From Zootoca vivipara (Eukaryota): a stretch of DNA of 64,000 bases. The stretch spans positions 69,378,001-69,442,000 of the forward strand of contig NC_083285.1 in assembly GCF_963506605.1 (NCBI RefSeq), written 5' to 3'. The position numbers and the translations under genes are program-made. Each line of letters begins with the position of its first letter. Position 1 is the stretch's first letter. Of the stretch, positions 392-35,801 are shown piece after piece. The notes beneath the pieces were generated by a model that was not told the DNA's origin, made no database searches, and was given only the letters and a program-made list of their open reading frames with translations.

Positions 392-10139
<9,748 letters not shown>

Positions 10140-24537: not shown

Positions 24538-27500
24538 TTACCGTGCTGCCTGCCTTCCACAACCTTTCCCGGGATTCTAACTGGATATTATATCTGAAAT
24601 CTCATATCACTATAAGATTAATGTCACTATAACTTCTTCCTCTCCGTATGCCTAATTTTCCTCTACAAAATCTGCCCGCTCACAGTGGAGAGCGCCATGT
24701 TCTTGGCTTCGTTTGGCAGCTTCTGAACCTTCATATTTCACCAGTCATGTTTATTTGCAGGGACGAAGCTTCCGGCTTCTGCTACCTGAACGACGCCGTC
24801 CTGGGCATCTTGCGGCTCCGGCAGAAATTTGGCCGCGTTCTCTATGTGGACTTAGATCTCCATCACGGGGATGGTAAGGATCCTGCCAGCACATGGGTGA
24901 TGTGACTTGACTTGTTCCTGCTGCTTTGGTTTTTTTGTGTGTTTTTTTAAATAATTTTTTAAATTAAATTTCCATTTTAACAATCCAATAAAAACCACAA
25001 TAAAACATTCCAAATTATAATACCATCAAAAATAAGCCAAATATTCAATGCCAAATTATATATCTTTTGGGTGACTTCCCATGCTCTGAAGTTCGTGGAG
25101 TGATGATCTAATATCATACTCCATTTCTTAATTAGTGCAAATAGTCCAAATAAAACATTTCCGATGTTGATCCTTCTTTTATTTTTAACAGTCACTGAAT
25201 TAATTTAGCAAGCGAGTTTTTAGTTCTGCGTGAAATATTTTTACTTTTCTTCTTCTTTATTTTCCTATTGTAATCCAAAGACCTCAGGGACGCAACTTTT
25301 GGTTTCTGCACACAAGGGCAAATCTCAGTGTGTCACATCCAAGACAGAGAACTAGCTTTCTGCCATTAGCCCCGGGCAGATATCCAAAATTCCCTTCTGT
25401 GATCTTGTTCCAGCTGCTGATGAGCTGATGCCCCAGCGCAAACACCATAACTCCCATCAAGAATTCTTTTTATCATAGCATTGAGGGCCGTTGCCAGAAT
25501 AATAATCAAAATTTCACACAATCAATTTTGTAGTTAACCATAACGAGATACTCTTTCAATCCTGCTTGCATATCAGTCAATAAAACAGCAAATGGAAAAT
25601 GTATCAAAAGAAAATAATGGAGGCTCACCTCCGCCGTCATACAGATCCAATTACGACAAAAATTCCTTCTCCAGATCAAAACCTTGGCACTCAGTGGCTG
25701 ATTCCAATTAGCCAGGTCCTCGTTTGACGCTAACCACCAGGGTGGATTTGATTTAAATCAAATCAATTTAAATCACTAGTCACTAAGACTTGATTTAAAT
25801 CACTAGTCACTAAGATTTGTTTTAAATCTTTTTTTCTTTTCTTTTTTACAGAAAGACTAATTCTTGCTGGTATAACCTTCATATTGACAACCAGAGGAAG
25901 TTTCCATTTTTGGAATAATAAATTTTCAGAGTAGTTTTTACAGTTATATCAAAAATTACTGATTTGGTTATACTACTAGAAATACATAGAGAGATAATTA
26001 CGAAATTACTGTGAGGTTAAATTTTATATTTAGACAACTTTTCTGCTTTACTTTGCTGGAAGGAGGAAAATAATCAGTTCCTTAATAACAATTTATTTAA
26101 CTAAAACAATAACATTATAGCATATGTGTGAGGGACAGGGGATATCGCGAAGTCCCTCCCCTCCTGAGTTCAAGCCAATCCCCGAGCACAGGGGGAAGCA
26201 GAGAGAGTTCCGATTCCAGTGGGGAAGCAGGAAGTCGTGTCCGAGGCTCAGGCAAGGTAGAGGAGCCAGGGTCCCAGGTGGGACAGGAAGGGGCGAATAA
26301 GGGCGGGAGAGCTGCGTAGCGTCGTTACTCTGAAGTAGTCCGCTCCGGCCACTGTGACAGCAACCTCCTAATCCTTTTTGGGCTACTTTGGAGTTGCCAG
26401 GATGAGCGTGTCAGAGGCGGAGAGATGGCGGCAGATCGCGGAGCAAGCCCAGCAAGAACTGCAGCAGCTGTCGCTGCAGGCGCAGGGGGAATTGAAGGCA
26501 GCTAAAGAAGAGACTAAGAAGGTCCAGGACGACCGGCTACAACTTGCGGAACAGGTGAGAGCGCTACAGGAAAGAGAGCAGGAATTAAGGGCGGTGGCGG
26601 TAGACCTCCAAAACAAGCTGGATGCAGAGAAAAACAAGGCGGGAGGGGCACCCCAAGTCCAAGTGCTGCCAGGAAGGAGAGCCGGGACGCTAGTAAGCAA
26701 GTTTAATGGAGACCCGAAGGAATATCAGGGCTTTGAGACTGAGATTGTGTATGCTCTTGAGCTGCACCACGATGAGTTCCCTGATGATGAGCACAGGGTA
26801 GCGTTTATTGTGGAGCACCTTACCGGGGCAGCCAGGGAGTGGCTAAGACCGTTAATTGCAACAAAGAATCCTTGCATGAAGAATGTCAAACTATTTCTAG
26901 AAGGTTTGAAAACGATGTATTCGTCCGATAGTCATATGGACCAGACTAAGGAGGAACTTCACAATTTACGCCAAGGAAATGTGACAGTTCGCGCGTATTG
27001 GGCGAAATTCACCATGCTGGTGCACAGATTGGGGTGGGAACTAGAGTCACCCCCAATGCAAGCGGCGTTCTACTTGGGGTTGCATGAGGAGGTGAAGGAT
27101 GAGCTCTCGAGAGGTCCAAAGCCCAGTAATATGGATCAGCTGAGCAAAGCGGCTCTGGCGGTGGGGGTGAGACAGGAATCCCGGTGGAGCGACAAGCAAG
27201 CAACGCGCGCAAAGCGGGCTTGGTTCCCACGGTCGCAGGAGAAGCCACCCTCCCAACAACCCTTTCAAGCCACGCCTGGGGCCAGTCAGGACCAGGAACC
27301 CATGCAGATTGATAGCGCGCGCGCGCGGGCTTTTCAAACCCCAGCGGCGCCAAGACGCAAGGAGGGAAGGGGTGGGAATTGCTTTCTCTGCAACTCCCCC
27401 CAGCATCTCGTCAGAGACTGCCCACATCGCAGGGAGTGGCAAGGAAAGGCGGGAACGGTTGTGCCCTCCCCCACTGACGCAGCACCACAGCAGGGAAACG

Positions 27501-30500
27501 GGAAAGCCTGGCTGCAGGAGACAAGGGGCAGCAGCCAGGCACAGTCAGCAGACAACAGCCCCAGCCCACCCACCAGCACAGAGAGGAGCAGAGCCAGCCC
27601 ACCCCTCCCAGAGCAGGAGTGGTTCTAGAAGTGACGCTCACGCTCCCAAATGGCTATCCCCTGACAGTCCTCGCCTTAATTGACAGTGGGGCGTCAGCGA
27701 ACTTCTTCTCGAGGAACTTTGCAGAAGAGCACCAGATCCAGCTTCTGCAGCTGGATTTTCCTCTGCACGTGGCGACCATTGACGGCAGAGAGCTGCTGGG
27801 AGGGGCCATCACTCATCAACCCCCCCCCATGAAAATGACGGTGGGAAGGCACTCAGAGACACTGGCATTCAACGTCACCACCATCTCAGACCCCCCCATC
27901 GTCTTGGGCATGAGCTGGCTGGCGCGCCACGACCCCTCCATCAGTTGGCACCAGAGATGCATCACTTTTGGATCGGACTTTTGCCTGGAACATTGCATGC
28001 AGCACCAACCAGGGGAGGGGCCTCCGATAGCCACGGTGGCCACCATGCACGTCAAAGGGGGTGAGGCGATACCCAAGCCGTACTGGGACCTGCAGGAGGT
28101 CTTCAGCGAAGCGGAGTCCGACCACCTACCCCCACACAGGCCTTTTGACTGCCAGATCAACCTGGTGCCAGGGGCAACTATACCCCCAGCCAAGCTGTAC
28201 GCCATGTCAGACCAGGAACTGGAGGATCTGCGCGCTTTCATCGACAAGAACCTCAAGCGGGGGTTCATCAGAGAAAGCAAGGCAGCAGGGGGCAGCCCGG
28301 TCTTCTGGGTGGACAAGAAAGACACGCAACAGCGCCGTCTGGGAGTGGATTTTAGACGACTGAATTCAGTGACAGAGCCAGTGGCTTTCCCCATGCCCAG
28401 AGTGGATGATCTCCTGACAGCGGCACGCAGGGGCAAGATTTTCACCAAGCTAGACCTGAGGGGGGCGTACAACTTGATCAGGATCCGGGAAGGCGATGAA
28501 TGGAAAACCACGATGTTCACGCCTCTGGGCTCTTTTGAATATCTGGTGATGCCCTTCGGGTTGCAAGGGGGCTCAGCATGCTTCCAGGCCTTCATGCACC
28601 ACGTCCTGGGGTCCCTCCTCTTCAGGAAATGCTTGGTCTTCCTGGATGACATCCTTATTTACTCCAATGACCCAGTGCAGCATGTGAAAGATGTCAGGGA
28701 GGTGTTGCAGCGCCTGAAGGAGAACCACCTGTATGTGAAGCTGGAGAAGTGCAAGTTTCACACCAAGGAGGTGGACTTCCTGGGCTACAAGCTGTCAGAC
28801 AAGGGGCTGGCGATGGACAAGGACAAGGTGCAGGCCATCCTGGACTGGCACAGCCCCAGGACGCGCAAAGATGCCCAACGCCTACTAGGCTTCGCCAACT
28901 TCTACAGGAAGTTCATCAAGAACTTCTCTCGCGTTACGGCTCCCATCACTGACTGCCTGAGAGGCAAGCAGAAGTTCAGGTGGACACCAGAGGCGCAAGC
29001 AGCGTTCGAAAGCCTCAAGAGGGTGTTCGCCTCAGACCAGAACCTGTTCCACGTGGTTCAGGACGCGCCCCTACGCGTGGAGACAGATGCTTCTGATAAA
29101 GCTGTGGGCGCCATTTTGTTGCAACTGGACGCCAACAGAGAGTGAAGACCCTGTGCCTTCTTCTCCAGGAAGTTGACCCAGCCAGAGCGAAACTACACGG
29201 TGTTTGATCGGGAACTTCTTGCGATCCACGCTGCGTTCCAGCACTGGAGACACTTCCTGGTGGGCGCCAAGCACCCCATCCAAGTGTGCACGGACCACAA
29301 AAACCTGGAGTTCTGGAGAACTGCCAGGGTGCTCAACCAGCGGCAGATACGGTGGGCAGAGTTCTTCTCGAACTTCAACTTCTCCATACACTACATCCCG
29401 GGAGAGCAGAATGTCAGGGCGGATGCCCTCTCCCGCAAGCCAGAGTACATGGAGGAGGAGGCGCCACCGGCACCCAGGCACATTTTCCCCCCGTCAGCAT
29501 GGTCCTGCGGAGCAGCAGTGGTGAGCGAGGCAGAACTCACAGCACTGACGGCAGCGGATGAATTTGCCAACCGCATCTTCAGAGAACTGAGAGGGGGGGG
29601 AGCAGGCAAAAGACTTTGCAGAACGCAGGGGGCTGCTTTTCTACAAAGGTGCACTGTACCTGCCCACCACCCAGCTTAGACGTACGGTCCTCAAGCAGAT
29701 GCACGACAACCCAACGGCGGGTCATTTTGGGAGGGACAAAACCACTCACCTAGTCATGAGACACTTCTGGTGGCCAGGGGTGAGGGAAGATGTTCGAGAC
29801 TATGTAAGGGGCTGTGACACCTGCCAGCGGGCAAAGGTGGTCAGAGCAGCGCCACCGGGATTGCTGGAGCCCTTAGCCACGCCACACAGGCCGTGGGAAG
29901 TGGTGTCCATGGACTTCATCACAGATCTGCCTTCTTCCAGGGGCAAGACCGCAGTGTTGGTGGTGGTGGACCTCATGTCCAAAATGTGCCATTTTATACC
30001 GTGTGCCAGGGCGGTCTCTGCAGAAGAGACAGCCAAACTGTTTGTGGATCACGTATTCAGACTGCATGGATTACCCTTAAGGGTTATTTCGGATCGTGGC
30101 CGCCAATTTGTTTCCAGGTTCTGGCGGCGGCTCATGAACCTCCTGCAGGTGGAGGTCAGCTTGTCGACGGCTAGACACCCGCAGACCAATGGACAGGCGG
30201 AGAGGGTCAACGCCATTCTGCAGCAGTACCTGAGATGTTACGTCAGCCAGAGGCAAACGGACTGGGTGGATCGCCTGCCACTGGCAGAATTTGCCTACAA
30301 CAATGCGGTGCACGTCTCCACAGGGGTGTCGCCCTTTAAGGCCAATTACGGGCGTGACCTCAGATCTTTCCCAGAGAGGGAGGGGGAGGAGGAGGAGGAA
30401 GGCCCACAGGCTGAGGATTGGGCAGAGGAACTGGAGACGGTGCACCAGCAGCTCAGAGAACACTTGGAGAGAGCCAAGGAAGCGTACAAGAGGGGGGCAG

Positions 30501-32895
30501 ATCGCCACAGGCGACCGGGGGAGGTCATTAGGGTGGGGGACAAAGTTTGGTTGTCCTCGGAGGGCCTTCCCATCAGAGGGCGATGCAAAAAGCTGGCGCC
30601 CAGAAGGTTGGGCCCCTTCACGGTCACGCAACAGGTCAACCCGGTGGCATACAGGCTGGCACTGCCAGAGGACATGAGGGTGCACCCAGTGTTTCATAGA
30701 TCGCTGCTGTCGCCGTACAGGGAAAGCAGCAGGCTCCGAGACAGCGAACAAACCCCTGAGGGAGGGGGGGAGAGGGAAGGCAGGGAGCAACTCAATGAGG
30801 CCACAGCCATCCTGGATTCAAGGTGGGGGGTGGGGGGACTGGAGTACCTCATGGCATGGGAGGATGCTCCACCGTCCCAGAATGAATGGGTCCCAGCCAC
30901 TCAGATACAGGAGGAATTCCTGGTAGAAGAATTTCACGCCTTCTTTCCCCATAGACCCAAGCCCTGGCACATGGAAAGGGAGGGGGAGGGGGAGGAAGCA
31001 CGGGAGAGCAGTTCACCATGGCGCTGGGAAGCGGAGTTTGAGGAACCAGAGGATGAGGTATGGGTGTCACCGAGATCCACCCAGTCAGAGGAAGGAGCAG
31101 ATTGGCAGAACATTTTTACCCCCACCAGCTCTGACGCCACAGACTTTTTGGGATTCCCGTCCTCCCAGGCGGAAGGGGGGGGCTTGCAGGACTGGGGGGA
31201 GGTGTTCACACCAACGGGCTCGGAAAGCACTGAGTTCTTAGGCTTCCAGTCGTCACCGACACCTGGGGGGGACCTGGGGAGGGGTGAAGGAGAGCTTGGG
31301 AGGGGGGTGGATGTGAGGGACAGGGGATATCGCGAAGTCCCTCCCCTCCTGAGTTCAAGCCAATCCCCGAGCACAGGGGGAAGCAGAGAGAGTTCCGATT
31401 CCAGTGGGGAAGCAGGAAGTCGTGTCCGAGGCTCAGGCAAGGTAGAGGAGCCAGGGTCCCAGGTGGGACAGGAAGGGGCGAATAAGGGCGGGAGACCCAT
31501 CCCCCCAACTCCGGAATTACGCAGAAAGAGGAGGGGAAAGAGGATGGGTCTGCCAAAGCTTTTGTGTTGGAGAAAGACGCGCCAAAAGCCATTAGGAGGT
31601 TCTGAAACCGACTGACCACATCACTCCGTGTAAATAGCAATGACTTAAGCACTGTAAATACGCAGCACCAATAAAAGAATAAAATGCAGAGCTGCGTAGC
31701 GTCGTTACTCTGAAGTAGTCCGCTCCGGCCACTGTGACAATATGTATCCATGTTTGTTAACTGATGTGGTCAAACAAAAAACAAAACAAAAACAACAATA
31801 ATAAACTTAGACTGAGTTTTAGCACACATGAAAAACAGGAAACAAATCCTTATTTCCTGATGAATAGCCTTTGGACTAGAATGTAACTTCAATAGAAAAA
31901 TAGAAAGATCTTTAGCAACTGTCATAAAAGCTATGAGATTGTGTTGTCTTTCAGCTTCCTTCCCTGATAAGCCCCCTTCTGTTCTGCTATAGTAGGGGTC
32001 GGCAAGGTTTACCTCTCCTGGGCCGGTTCACTCCAGCGGAGATCCCTCCGTGGGCTGGATCACATGTGCTCTGCCGCGATTTCCAGCGTCTGTGTCTGCG
32101 CAGACATGATTTCCGGCGTCTGCCTCTGTGCAGACGCGATTTCTGGCGTCTGAGCATGCGCAGACACGATTTCTGCCACCGCGGAAGCGAGGCACCACGC
32201 TGTGCCGGTTTAGTGCCACACACGGGGACTCACTGAGTGGGTGGCTCGGTTTGGGGGCGGCTCGTGGGCTGGTTAAACGACCCCCATGGGCCTTAGGTTG
32301 CCGGCCCCTGTGCTATAGGGTCTCTGGACTCCAGGACTAGACTCTGTAGCTGATGTGAGTGGCTGGTGGGCAAGGAGCCTGTCGCAATTATTTCACTTCT
32401 CTCTCTCTTCCTTTCCACCCAGGTGTAGAAGATGCCTTCATCTTCACCTCCAAAGTGATGACGGTGTCTCTGCATAAGTTCTCTCCAGGGTTTTTCCCAG
32501 GCAAGTGATTATTATGTATTTATTTTACTGTGCTTGAGTGTTGCTTCCCTTCAGCTCCCCATTGGCTCCCAGTACGTTTCCAGGCACAATTCCACCCCCA
32601 TCGTTCTGCCCGGACACTGAGGTCCGGCTCTGAGGGCCTCCTGGTGGTTCCCTCCCTGCTAGAAGTGAAGTTACAAGGAACCAGGCAGAGGGCCTTCTCG
32701 GTGGTGGCGCCTGCCCTGTGGAACGCCCTCCCATCAGATGTCAAGGAAATAAACAACTACCTGACTTTTAGAAGGCATCTGAAGGCAGCCCTGTTTAGGG
32801 AAGCTTTTAATGTTTGATGATTTATTGTACTTTAACATTCTGTTAGAAGCTGCCCAGCGTGGCTGGGGAAACCCAGCCAGATGGGCAGGGTATAA

Positions 32896-33320: not shown

Positions 33321-35801
33321 TGTTTAAAGAATATATTTAAAAATGAATAAACCACATGAGACATGAGATCATTTCTCCTTTTCCTCTTTTATTAAATTTA
33401 TTATTAACATTTCTATTACATATTTCACATTTATACAATAACCATCCAAACAATTTCCTCCTTTTCTTTTCTTTCTTTTGGTGGCATTAGTTTTTATACA
33501 CTTTGTATGTTCCTATTTTATCACATGGACCAGCCCCCTGCTGAAAAAGTTTGCTGACCCCTGGTCTAAACCCCTGAGCCTCTTGGGCTTGCCGATCGGA
33601 AGGTCGGCAGTTCGAATCCCCGCGACGGGGTGAGCTCCCGTCGCTCTGTCCCAGCTCCTGCCAACATAGCAGTTCGAAAGCACACCAGTGCAAGTAGATA
33701 AATAGGTACCGCTGTGGTGGGCAAGGTAAATGGTGTTTCTGTGCGCTCTGGCACTCATCACTATTGCACCAATAGTGGTTTAGTCCTGCTGGCCACATGA
33801 CCCGGAAAGCTGTCTGTGGACAAACGCCATCTCCCTCGGCCTGAAAGCGAGATGAGCGCCGCAACCCAATAGTCGCCTTTGACTGGACGTAACCGTCCAG
33901 GGTTTCCTTTTCACCTTATTAGTTTTTATACATGTTGTATACAGTCATACCTCGGAAGTCGAACGCCTTCCAAGTCGAACGTTTTGGCCCCTCGAATGCC
34001 ACAAACCCGGAATTGAGTGTTCCGGTTTGAGACCATTCTTCTGGAACCCAAACGTCTGACGCGGGTTCTGTGGCTTCCGATTGGCTGCAGGAGCTTCCTG
34101 CAGCCAATTGGAAGCTGCGCCTTGGTCTCCAAAAGTTTTGGAAGTCGAATGGACCTCCGCAACAGATTCCGTTCGACTTCCAGGGTACCGCTCTATTTAT
34201 ATTTTGTGTTCACAAAGTGTATCACATGAGTACCCCCTGTTTATTTCCCCTGTTCTCTGTCCATGTTATTCTCTGAATCCCAAGAGACATAAGAACCTGA
34301 GAAGAGGCTGCTGGATCAGGCCAGGGAGGCCAGTATCCTGCTATCATAATGGCCAACAGGAGGTCCCTCGATGGGCAGCCCACAGGCAGTATCTGAGGCA
34401 GAAAGCATCCTTCAGGGTCCTGCTCCTCTTCCTGTGGTCTCCTCCTGTGGTCTCTTCCAATTCTATGATTCCTGGTCCCAAGTCAGTAAAAAAAAACCTC
34501 TCTTCTGCCTCTTGCTCAGGAACAGGAGATGTGACGGACGTGGGCCTGGGGAAGGGGCGTTACTACAGCGTCAACGTCCCCATTCAAGACGGCATCCAAG
34601 ACGACAGATACTTCCAGATCTGCGAGAGGTAAGAACCCACCACCCGGTGGCCCTTTGGGAGCAAAGGTTTTCGGTGGTTCTCCTGCAGTTCCTCCTTTGG
34701 CGCTCCTGCTCCCTCTGCCCCTCCTGGCATAACCCGCACTCAGGGCTCGCTCTGTCTCCCATCAGATTGTTCTAGGCGAGCTGCTGGAATTGGCCCTGCG
34801 GCTTTTGAAACACTTCCGGGCTCCATGAGGAAGCAGGGCCGCCTTTAGCATATGCAGATGCAGCTCAGTCACCAGACCTCTGGGCAAGGCCATTGCACAC
34901 TCCACATGGCCAAGAAGATTGGGCTGGGGCTCTCCTGCCAGTGGCTCCCTACCTGGCTGCTGTGGTCTAAACCCCTGGGCCTCTTGGGCTTGCCAGTCGG
35001 AAGGTCAGCGGTTCGAATCCCCACAACGGGGTGAGCTCCCATTGCTCTGTCCCAGCTCCTGCCAGCCTAGCAGTTCTAAAGCACGCCAGTGCAAGTAGAT
35101 AAATAGGTACCGCTGCGGCGGGAAGGTAAGCAGCATTTCCGTGCGCTCTGGTTTCCGTCACGGTTGTGCCAGAAGCGGTTGAGTCCTGCTGGAAAATTGT
35201 CTGTGGACAAACGCCAGCTCCCTCGGCCCAAAAGCGAGATGAGTGCCACAACCGCAGAGTCGCCTTGGACTGGACCTAACTTCTGCTGCCAGTGGCTCCC
35301 TGCCTGCCTGCTCTCCGGGTAACGGGGCTTCGTTCTTCTCCCTGCAGTGTTCTGAAGGAGGTCTACGCAGCGTTCAGCCCTGAGGCCGTCGTCCTGCAGT
35401 TGGGGGCAGACACCATCGCTGGTGACCCCATGTGCTCCTTCAACTTGACCCCCGAAGGGGTCGGCCGGTGCCTGAAGTACGTGTTGCAGTGGCAGCGCCC
35501 GACCCTCGTCCTGGGAGGAGGTGAGTGAAGGCGGCCGGGAGGGCAGAGGGGCATCGGGCTTGGGGCTTGGCCACCGTTCAACTGGGCTTCCAAGCCCACC
35601 TTGGAGTCCCCAGAGTGGCAGGGAGTTCCCAGGGCAACTTCTCAAGGACTAGTTCCTTCTGAAGCCAGCCCTGGGATGATTTTGTTCATTCCATTTCTCT
35701 CCCATTTCCATCTTCTCTTCTATATGTCTCACAGTTTTTTACAAACCCACATGAAAACATCAAATAAAGCAATCCGGAATAAAACATGGCTGAAGGATGT
35801 C

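Follow-up and report, generated by a model that had tools for sequence, protein, structure and literature searches.

Behind its chromodomain, the integrase of a Zootoca vivipara chromovirus carries two tandem copies of a motif laid out like the cellular peptides that bind TFIIS N-terminal domains (TNDs), and such FxGF tails are confined, as a new observation among the chromodomains compared, to a clade of elements with cage-depleted chromodomains. From the sequence evidence, we consider it somewhat better than an even chance that these repeats are selected short linear motifs that bind the integrase-binding domain (IBD, a TND) of LEDGF/p75 or HRP2, tethering the integration complex in place of the lost methyl-lysine cage. 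The earlier note on this DNA had proposed mimicry of such host motifs as a way of targeting integration; conservation, purifying selection and the fit to the published anatomy of TND-interacting motifs (TIMs) speak for the mimicry, while the gene-body targeting is so far unsupported.

The element, its host gene and its family

The element, a Ty3/Gypsy LTR retrotransposon (chromovirus), occupies positions 26127-31739 of the window, the whole 64,000-nucleotide stretch of DNA analysed (Table 1). It shows the LTRs, target-site duplication, gag followed by protease, RT, RNase H and integrase, and C-terminal chromodomain of chromoviruses, an architecture with SH3 domain and chromodomain that it shares with MAGGY and the plant Tekay, Reina and Galadriel elements. 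In the present copy pol is broken, both by an in-frame stop codon (29143-29145) and by a change of frame ahead of the integrase. Pfam matches to histone-deacetylase exons at 24762-24872 and 34522-34626 flank the element, placing it in an intron and in sense orientation relative to a gene that we take to be HDAC8; this copy thus does lie inside a gene body, as the earlier note had it. A further exon is predicted near the element, at 32425-32502, by the exon heuristic described below. Exons of a SHIPPO-repeat gene, presumably ODF3-like, lie at 392-9113 on the minus strand, opposite to the strand of the deacetylase gene.

Table 1. Features of the element, in window positions.
Feature	Position	Strand	Basis or remark
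Target-site duplication, 5 bp, ATATG	left 26122..26126, right 31740-31744	+ (left)	both flanks match
5' LTR	26127..26359	+	matches the 3' LTR throughout except for 195 bp deleted internally
gag frame	26372..27628	+	Retrotrans_gag, Ty3_capsid, zinc knuckle (Pfam)
pol: protease, RT, RNase H	27478..29679	+	Pfam
Integrase frame	29591..31615	+	H2C2 zinc finger, rve core, Tf2-type SH3, chromodomain, acidic tail (Pfam)
Chromodomain	30791..30970	+	Pfam Chromo, aa 404-449; first and third cage aromatics missing
Upstream W-x3-F and acidic stretch without FxGF	31019..31063	+	sequence
TIM-like unit 1	31100..31156	+	W-x3-F, 9-residue Ser/Thr/Asp linker, FLGF
TIM-like unit 2	31190..31246	+	W-x3-F, 9-residue Ser/Thr/Glu linker, FLGF
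Polypurine tract	31298..31311	+	translated in frame by the integrase tail
3' LTR	31312..31739	+	TG...CA, 428 bp
LTR-encoded basic cluster and LLCW motif	31520..31576	+	conserved in divergent relatives

The integrase frame continues for ~100 codons within the 3' LTR. These U3 codons of the pol frame (31312-31615) are under purifying selection, with dN/dS of 0.09-0.21 for the LTR-encoded end (aa 641-674) against the subfamilies L231-L234. They end in the basic cluster and LLCW motif, a likely nuclear localisation signal, which is common to families that are ~50% identical.

The host genome contains 157 exact matches to a 24-mer that spans the first FLGF, indicating at least 157 copies of this young family, many of them with long open pol frames; both FLGF motifs fall in one open frame in 27 of the 30 closest copies. 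The named relatives of the element come from Podarcis and Zootoca, in line with a lacertid host. The family is covered by raw RNA reads labelled with this species in three of three runs, and the motif bin in two of three; the reads derive from both strands, mostly with 95-99% similarity, and can be neither assigned to the window copy nor told apart from host read-through. Within the genome, 23 of the 157 matches cluster in ~35 Mb (C9:43-77 Mb), at a density of 0.66 per Mb compared to 0.08 on C1-C8, with the older subfamilies L232-L234 included, and this stretch is possibly a low-recombination or sex-linked region. Synonymous divergence between window positions 29885-31246 and L232-L234 is patchy, at ~0.2 in the integrase core and near 1 around it, with unit 1 also at ~0.2 for two of the three, suggesting recombination among subfamilies. 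The same genome harbors a second young chromovirus family, represented by L236 (C6:5058900-5060500) and L237 (C9:45801650-45803250), which combines an intact cage with a long Trp/acidic tail that lacks FxGF.

Conservation of the tail repeats and loss of the chromodomain cage

Translation confirmed both tail repeats described in the earlier note, 30 codons apart and downstream of the chromodomain. Their W-x-x-[IV]F and FLGF segments stand as reported, but the linkers, which had been described as Ser/Thr/acidic, are only weakly acidic, with two D/E and five S/T residues each. Shuffling produced two FxGF motifs in 14 of 100,000 permutations of the 217-aa tail and in 65 of 100,000 of its 115-aa pre-LTR part. 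Between unit 1 and unit 2, pS is 0.89 and pN 0.23 over 19 codons; with synonymous sites saturated at this pN, the likeness of the two units has been kept at the protein level. Compared with L231-L234, pN is 0.02-0.19 in the units and 0.23-0.36 in the spacer, indicative of purifying selection on the FxGF repeats, and the remaining tail, including its LTR-encoded codons, is likewise under purifying selection. The motif is also conserved across the family, since relatives 44-88% identical retain the hydrophobic-x3-F, the linker and FxGF; on both counts the expectations of the earlier note were borne out. Decay has affected only one of the two units in P0003, P0302 and P0303, and the partner is intact. 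The W-x3-F stretch upstream of unit 1, retained in L231-L234 and L238-L240, may be a third unit, either decayed or consisting of the helix only.

We then compared 26 units from 19 sequences, which were picked for FxGF and are not mutually independent. Linker length is 8-9 in all 26, with a D/E count of 0-7, and W, F or L occupies position i-4 of the anchor F in 23. An S/T-x-x-D/E site is present in 22 units, and the x position of FxGF is free (L, E, R, V, K, I, Q or H). The strict D/E-x-E-x sequence ahead of FxGF is matched by 8 of the 26 units, and by 21 if D, S or T is allowed at -2; the window units have T at -2, where the published consensus (D/E-x-E-x-F-x-G-F) has E. The linker is purely Ser/Thr, without any acidic residue, in P0161, P0164 and P0305. 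Together with P0306, these sequences make up a fast-evolving Podarcis subclade that has kept FxGF after a non-acidic linker and in which none of the three cage aromatics survives, according to the scores of P0161 and P0164.

Methyl-lysine reading by chromodomains requires a cage formed by Y24, W45 and Y48 (PMC3350952), and the window chromodomain presents N, W and A instead of Y, W and Y, unlike the group I cage. Cage scoring of 199 aligned chromodomains revealed that all 14 followed by an FxGF tail have at most one of the three cage aromatics, whereas FxGF is found in none of the 95 tails of at least 40 aa behind chromodomains with two or three; eleven of the 199 have at most one cage aromatic and yet no FxGF. 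A quick tree of the 137 of 240 BLAST matches that cover at least 135 residues places the 14 FxGF sequences inside one group of 19 (SH-aLRT 92), in which the five others are one out-of-frame tail model and four near-identical decayed models. Because the FxGF sequences form one clade, the correlation probably reflects a single event and does not count as a repeated one. Since L236 and L237 have an acidic tail behind an intact cage, this kind of tail may well predate FxGF, which would have been added in the cage-less branch. The clade shares the loss of the Y24 and Y48 equivalents with group II chromodomains, which a 2012 study describes only in plants, vertebrate elements being assigned to group I (PMC3350952). 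This vertebrate clade lost its cage, apparently independently, and gained FxGF units.

Insertion sites of the family

LEDGF and HRP2 read H3K36me2/3, and a tail that docks on them is therefore predicted to lean toward transcribed chromatin. We analyzed the flanks of 50 insertions against 34 random sites of 45 planned, the placement of which was approximate and over-weighted C18. The insertions came from a sample of 51 LTR ends, restricted to those with A, C or T as the next base, from which the window's own was excluded. Flanks had a mean length of 17.3 kb around insertions and 20 kb around random sites. Candidate exons were ranked by a heuristic, which placed seven deacetylase-like exons of the window within its top 26 candidates, and the 300 best-ranked flank candidates were taken on to a Pfam scan. 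Four transposon-domain matches and one locus with weak coiled-coil matches only were removed from the exon counts.

A Pfam-confirmed exon lay within 10 kb of 12 of the 50 insertions and 8 of the 34 random sites (ratio 1.02, 95% CI 0.47-2.2), revealing no excess near exons (OR 1.03, p = 1.0). Exons were present on both sides of 6/50 insertions and 5/34 random sites, and within 4.6 kb of 10/50 and 4/34, respectively (p = 0.38). None of 30 variants of the rule was significant, the highest odds ratio being 2.1 (p = 0.26). Insertions and random sites did not differ in the GC, CpG or repeat content of their flanks, and a strand-skew proxy for transcription, concordant at 35/49 insertions and 20/33 random sites, showed no significant difference. 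Gene-body targeting, as considered in the earlier note, finds no detectable enrichment behind it in this test, which is weak and covers only insertions that have survived selection. There is no sign of a strong gene-body bias, although a twofold bias is compatible with the confidence interval; any bias in the sample is moderate at most. Of 13 copies near exons (the weak coiled-coil locus counted), nine are in antisense orientation (p = 0.27), a hint that genic copies have been thinned by selection.

Among the 51 LTR ends, the target began with A in 21 cases, C in 26 and T in only 4, pointing to a target-site sequence preference. One copy (L138-L139, C10:3.2 Mb) sits in a 146-bp satellite array, and a related array (~88% alike; L190-L191) lies near the end of C18. 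An excess of copies on small contigs (64/131, p = 0.005) was rejected as family-specific, the LTR-end sample giving 20/47 (p = 0.45) and the cage-intact family 18/40, a share that derives from 43 matches of which 2 were checked by sequence.

Candidate partners of the tail and their meaning

By the published description, every TIM has a short helix followed by an acidic linker, 8-16 residues long and in many cases phosphorylated by CK2; FxGF is optional and has a role specific to LEDGF and HRP2 (PMC9987994). In MLL1, the anchors F129 and F133 are followed by F148-L149-F151, with the consensus D/E-x-E-x-F-x-G-F (PMC8022399). The spacing of F129 and F133 is the i, i+4 spacing of the element's units, the nine-residue, Ser/Thr-rich linkers of the window lie within the published range, and the FxGF of LEDGF/HRP2-type TIMs occurs twice, as FLGF. 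The strict consensus is absent from both window units; with two acidic residues and T at -2 in each, they would depend on phosphorylation. The tail is predicted to be disordered, with pLDDT <40 over aa 471-674, no secondary structure and no Pfam domain, compared to a pLDDT of 73-81 for the chromodomain (AlphaFold), and no helix appears in the model of the unbound tail, which was built on a shallow alignment of 9 sequences (mean pLDDT 40).

As for the host reader, an HRP2 IBD exon is present in the genome. PSIP1 was not located by a LEDGF family search, in which one match among five candidates was the HRP2 exon; since the exons are split, this blank is not evidence of absence. Complex prediction with the HRP2 IBD (P0117 458-548) and 35 aa of unit 1 scored 0.01, which is no evidence either way, the run having used no alignments and a tool unvalidated for peptides and disordered chains. 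A PDB sequence search with the tail returned two chance matches only. An identity with FGDF, the G3BP-binding motif, was rejected on account of mismatched residue order.

With the cage residues lost and a ligand-shaped motif kept, the tail likely docks on LEDGF or HRP2. We propose that W-x3-F forms a short anchoring helix, that FxGF would fill a second pocket of the IBD, and that CK2-type phosphorylation of the Ser/Thr linker would supply the missing charge, with two units conferring avidity or redundancy; the docked integrase tail would in this manner tether the integration complex to chromatin. The fuller scenario, in which the clade swapped heterochromatin reading for host mimicry, its tandem phospho-switchable FxGF units hijacking LEDGF/HRP2 after loss of the cage and steering integration to transcribed chromatin, we put forward only tentatively. 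With at most a moderate bias in the sample, the benefit may lie less in sharp targeting than in capturing chromatin efficiently or escaping heterochromatin.

It is possible, if rather unlikely, that the motif binds another host protein: the TND of TFIIS, Elongin A, MED26, PNUTS or IWS1, an Atg8-family protein through D-W-x-x-I/V, or a coactivator surface for aromatic-acidic peptides. The LIR (Atg8-interacting) pattern is an acidic residue followed by W/F/Y-x-x-L/I/V, and both window units start with it (D-W-x-x-[IV]), but it is missing from several units of relatives (WEEQF, LQEIF) and does not account for the invariant F that follows, the constant spacing of 8-9 or FxGF. The Trp/acidic tail of the cage-intact sister family, suggestive of an older aromatic-acidic function, and the lack of a gene-body excess would also suit a different partner. 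Many TIMs, moreover, bind several TNDs by the helix alone, although the same review ties FxGF to LEDGF and HRP2 specifically (PMC9987994).

We judge it improbable that LEDGF or HRP2 is bound for something other than site choice (integrase stability, nuclear retention or an anti-silencing shield), or that the contact is internal to the element, such as a fold-back on the altered chromodomain or integrase. Near-random insertions and purifying selection along the entire tail, LTR-coded part included, would agree with such a role, and in Drosophila a contact between FxGF and the LEDGF domain stabilises JIL-1, in a complex that supports transposon expression (bioRxiv 10.1101/624023). Against it, FxGF was gained where the cage, presumably a targeting device, was lost, and the antisense majority among exon-near copies is what would be expected if selection had hidden a genic bias. 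That neutral duplication of DNA in an acidic tail of low complexity produced a chance likeness to TIMs is very improbable: FxGF is short, one copy arises in about 3-5% of tail shuffles and FLGF is common in RT domains too, but saturated synonymous sites between units in which F, G, F and W stay fixed largely refute this explanation, and motif and spacing are retained across families that are 44% identical.

Docking on LEDGF or HRP2, the reading we prefer, has parallels in known systems. The cellular IBD motifs and TIMs of KMT2A/MLL1, CDCA7L/JPO2, IWS1, POGZ and fly JIL-1 share with the element the i, i+4 hydrophobic pattern of its putative helix anchor, the phosphorylatable acidic linker, FxGF and predicted disorder, whereas the element's putative ligand resides on a mobile integrase, with a linker fixed at 8-9 residues and Ser/Thr-rich in the window. 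Solved IBD fusions exist with MLL1, JPO2, POGZ and IWS1. Lentiviruses contact LEDGF through a folded integrase surface and not through a linear FxGF motif, and their strong gene-body bias is not seen for the element. The predicted reader and purpose of the element's tail are nevertheless those of lentiviral integrase with LEDGF/HRP2 (PMC9987994, PMC5053271). Short tail tethers are known as well from MLV, in which a conserved peptide of ~16 aa in the flexible integrase tail grips a BET host protein (PMC5053271), and from the swappable integrase targeting domains of Ty1 and Ty5 (PMC11054761). The partners of MLV, Ty1 and Ty5 differ (BET ET domain, Pol III AC40 and Sir4, respectively), and FxGF occurs in none of them. 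Ty5 integrase targeting is itself host mimicry.

An FxGF contact is already known in fly JIL-1 (bioRxiv 10.1101/624023), and POGZ, transposase-derived according to a reference title in PMC8022399, is a known case of a host protein of transposable-element origin with an IBD contact. We found no description of FxGF or a TIM in a retrotransposon integrase in the full-text literature, a scope outside which most subscription papers and the supplements of primary TIM papers fall. In the TND review, viral mimicry refers to lentiviral integrase only and 'transpos' is absent (PMC9987994), and PMC6156844 contained nothing relevant.

If our reading is true, it would be the first demonstration of a mobile-element integrase engaging LEDGF/HRP2 through the cellular FxGF motif, converging on the lentiviral cofactor, and HIV's cofactor would have been reached by an independent, linear-motif route. 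Furthermore, the genome houses two young families, of which one has an intact cage without FxGF and the other the reverse; they offer a natural comparison for vertebrate chromovirus targeting, in which the L236/L237 family is the natural control.
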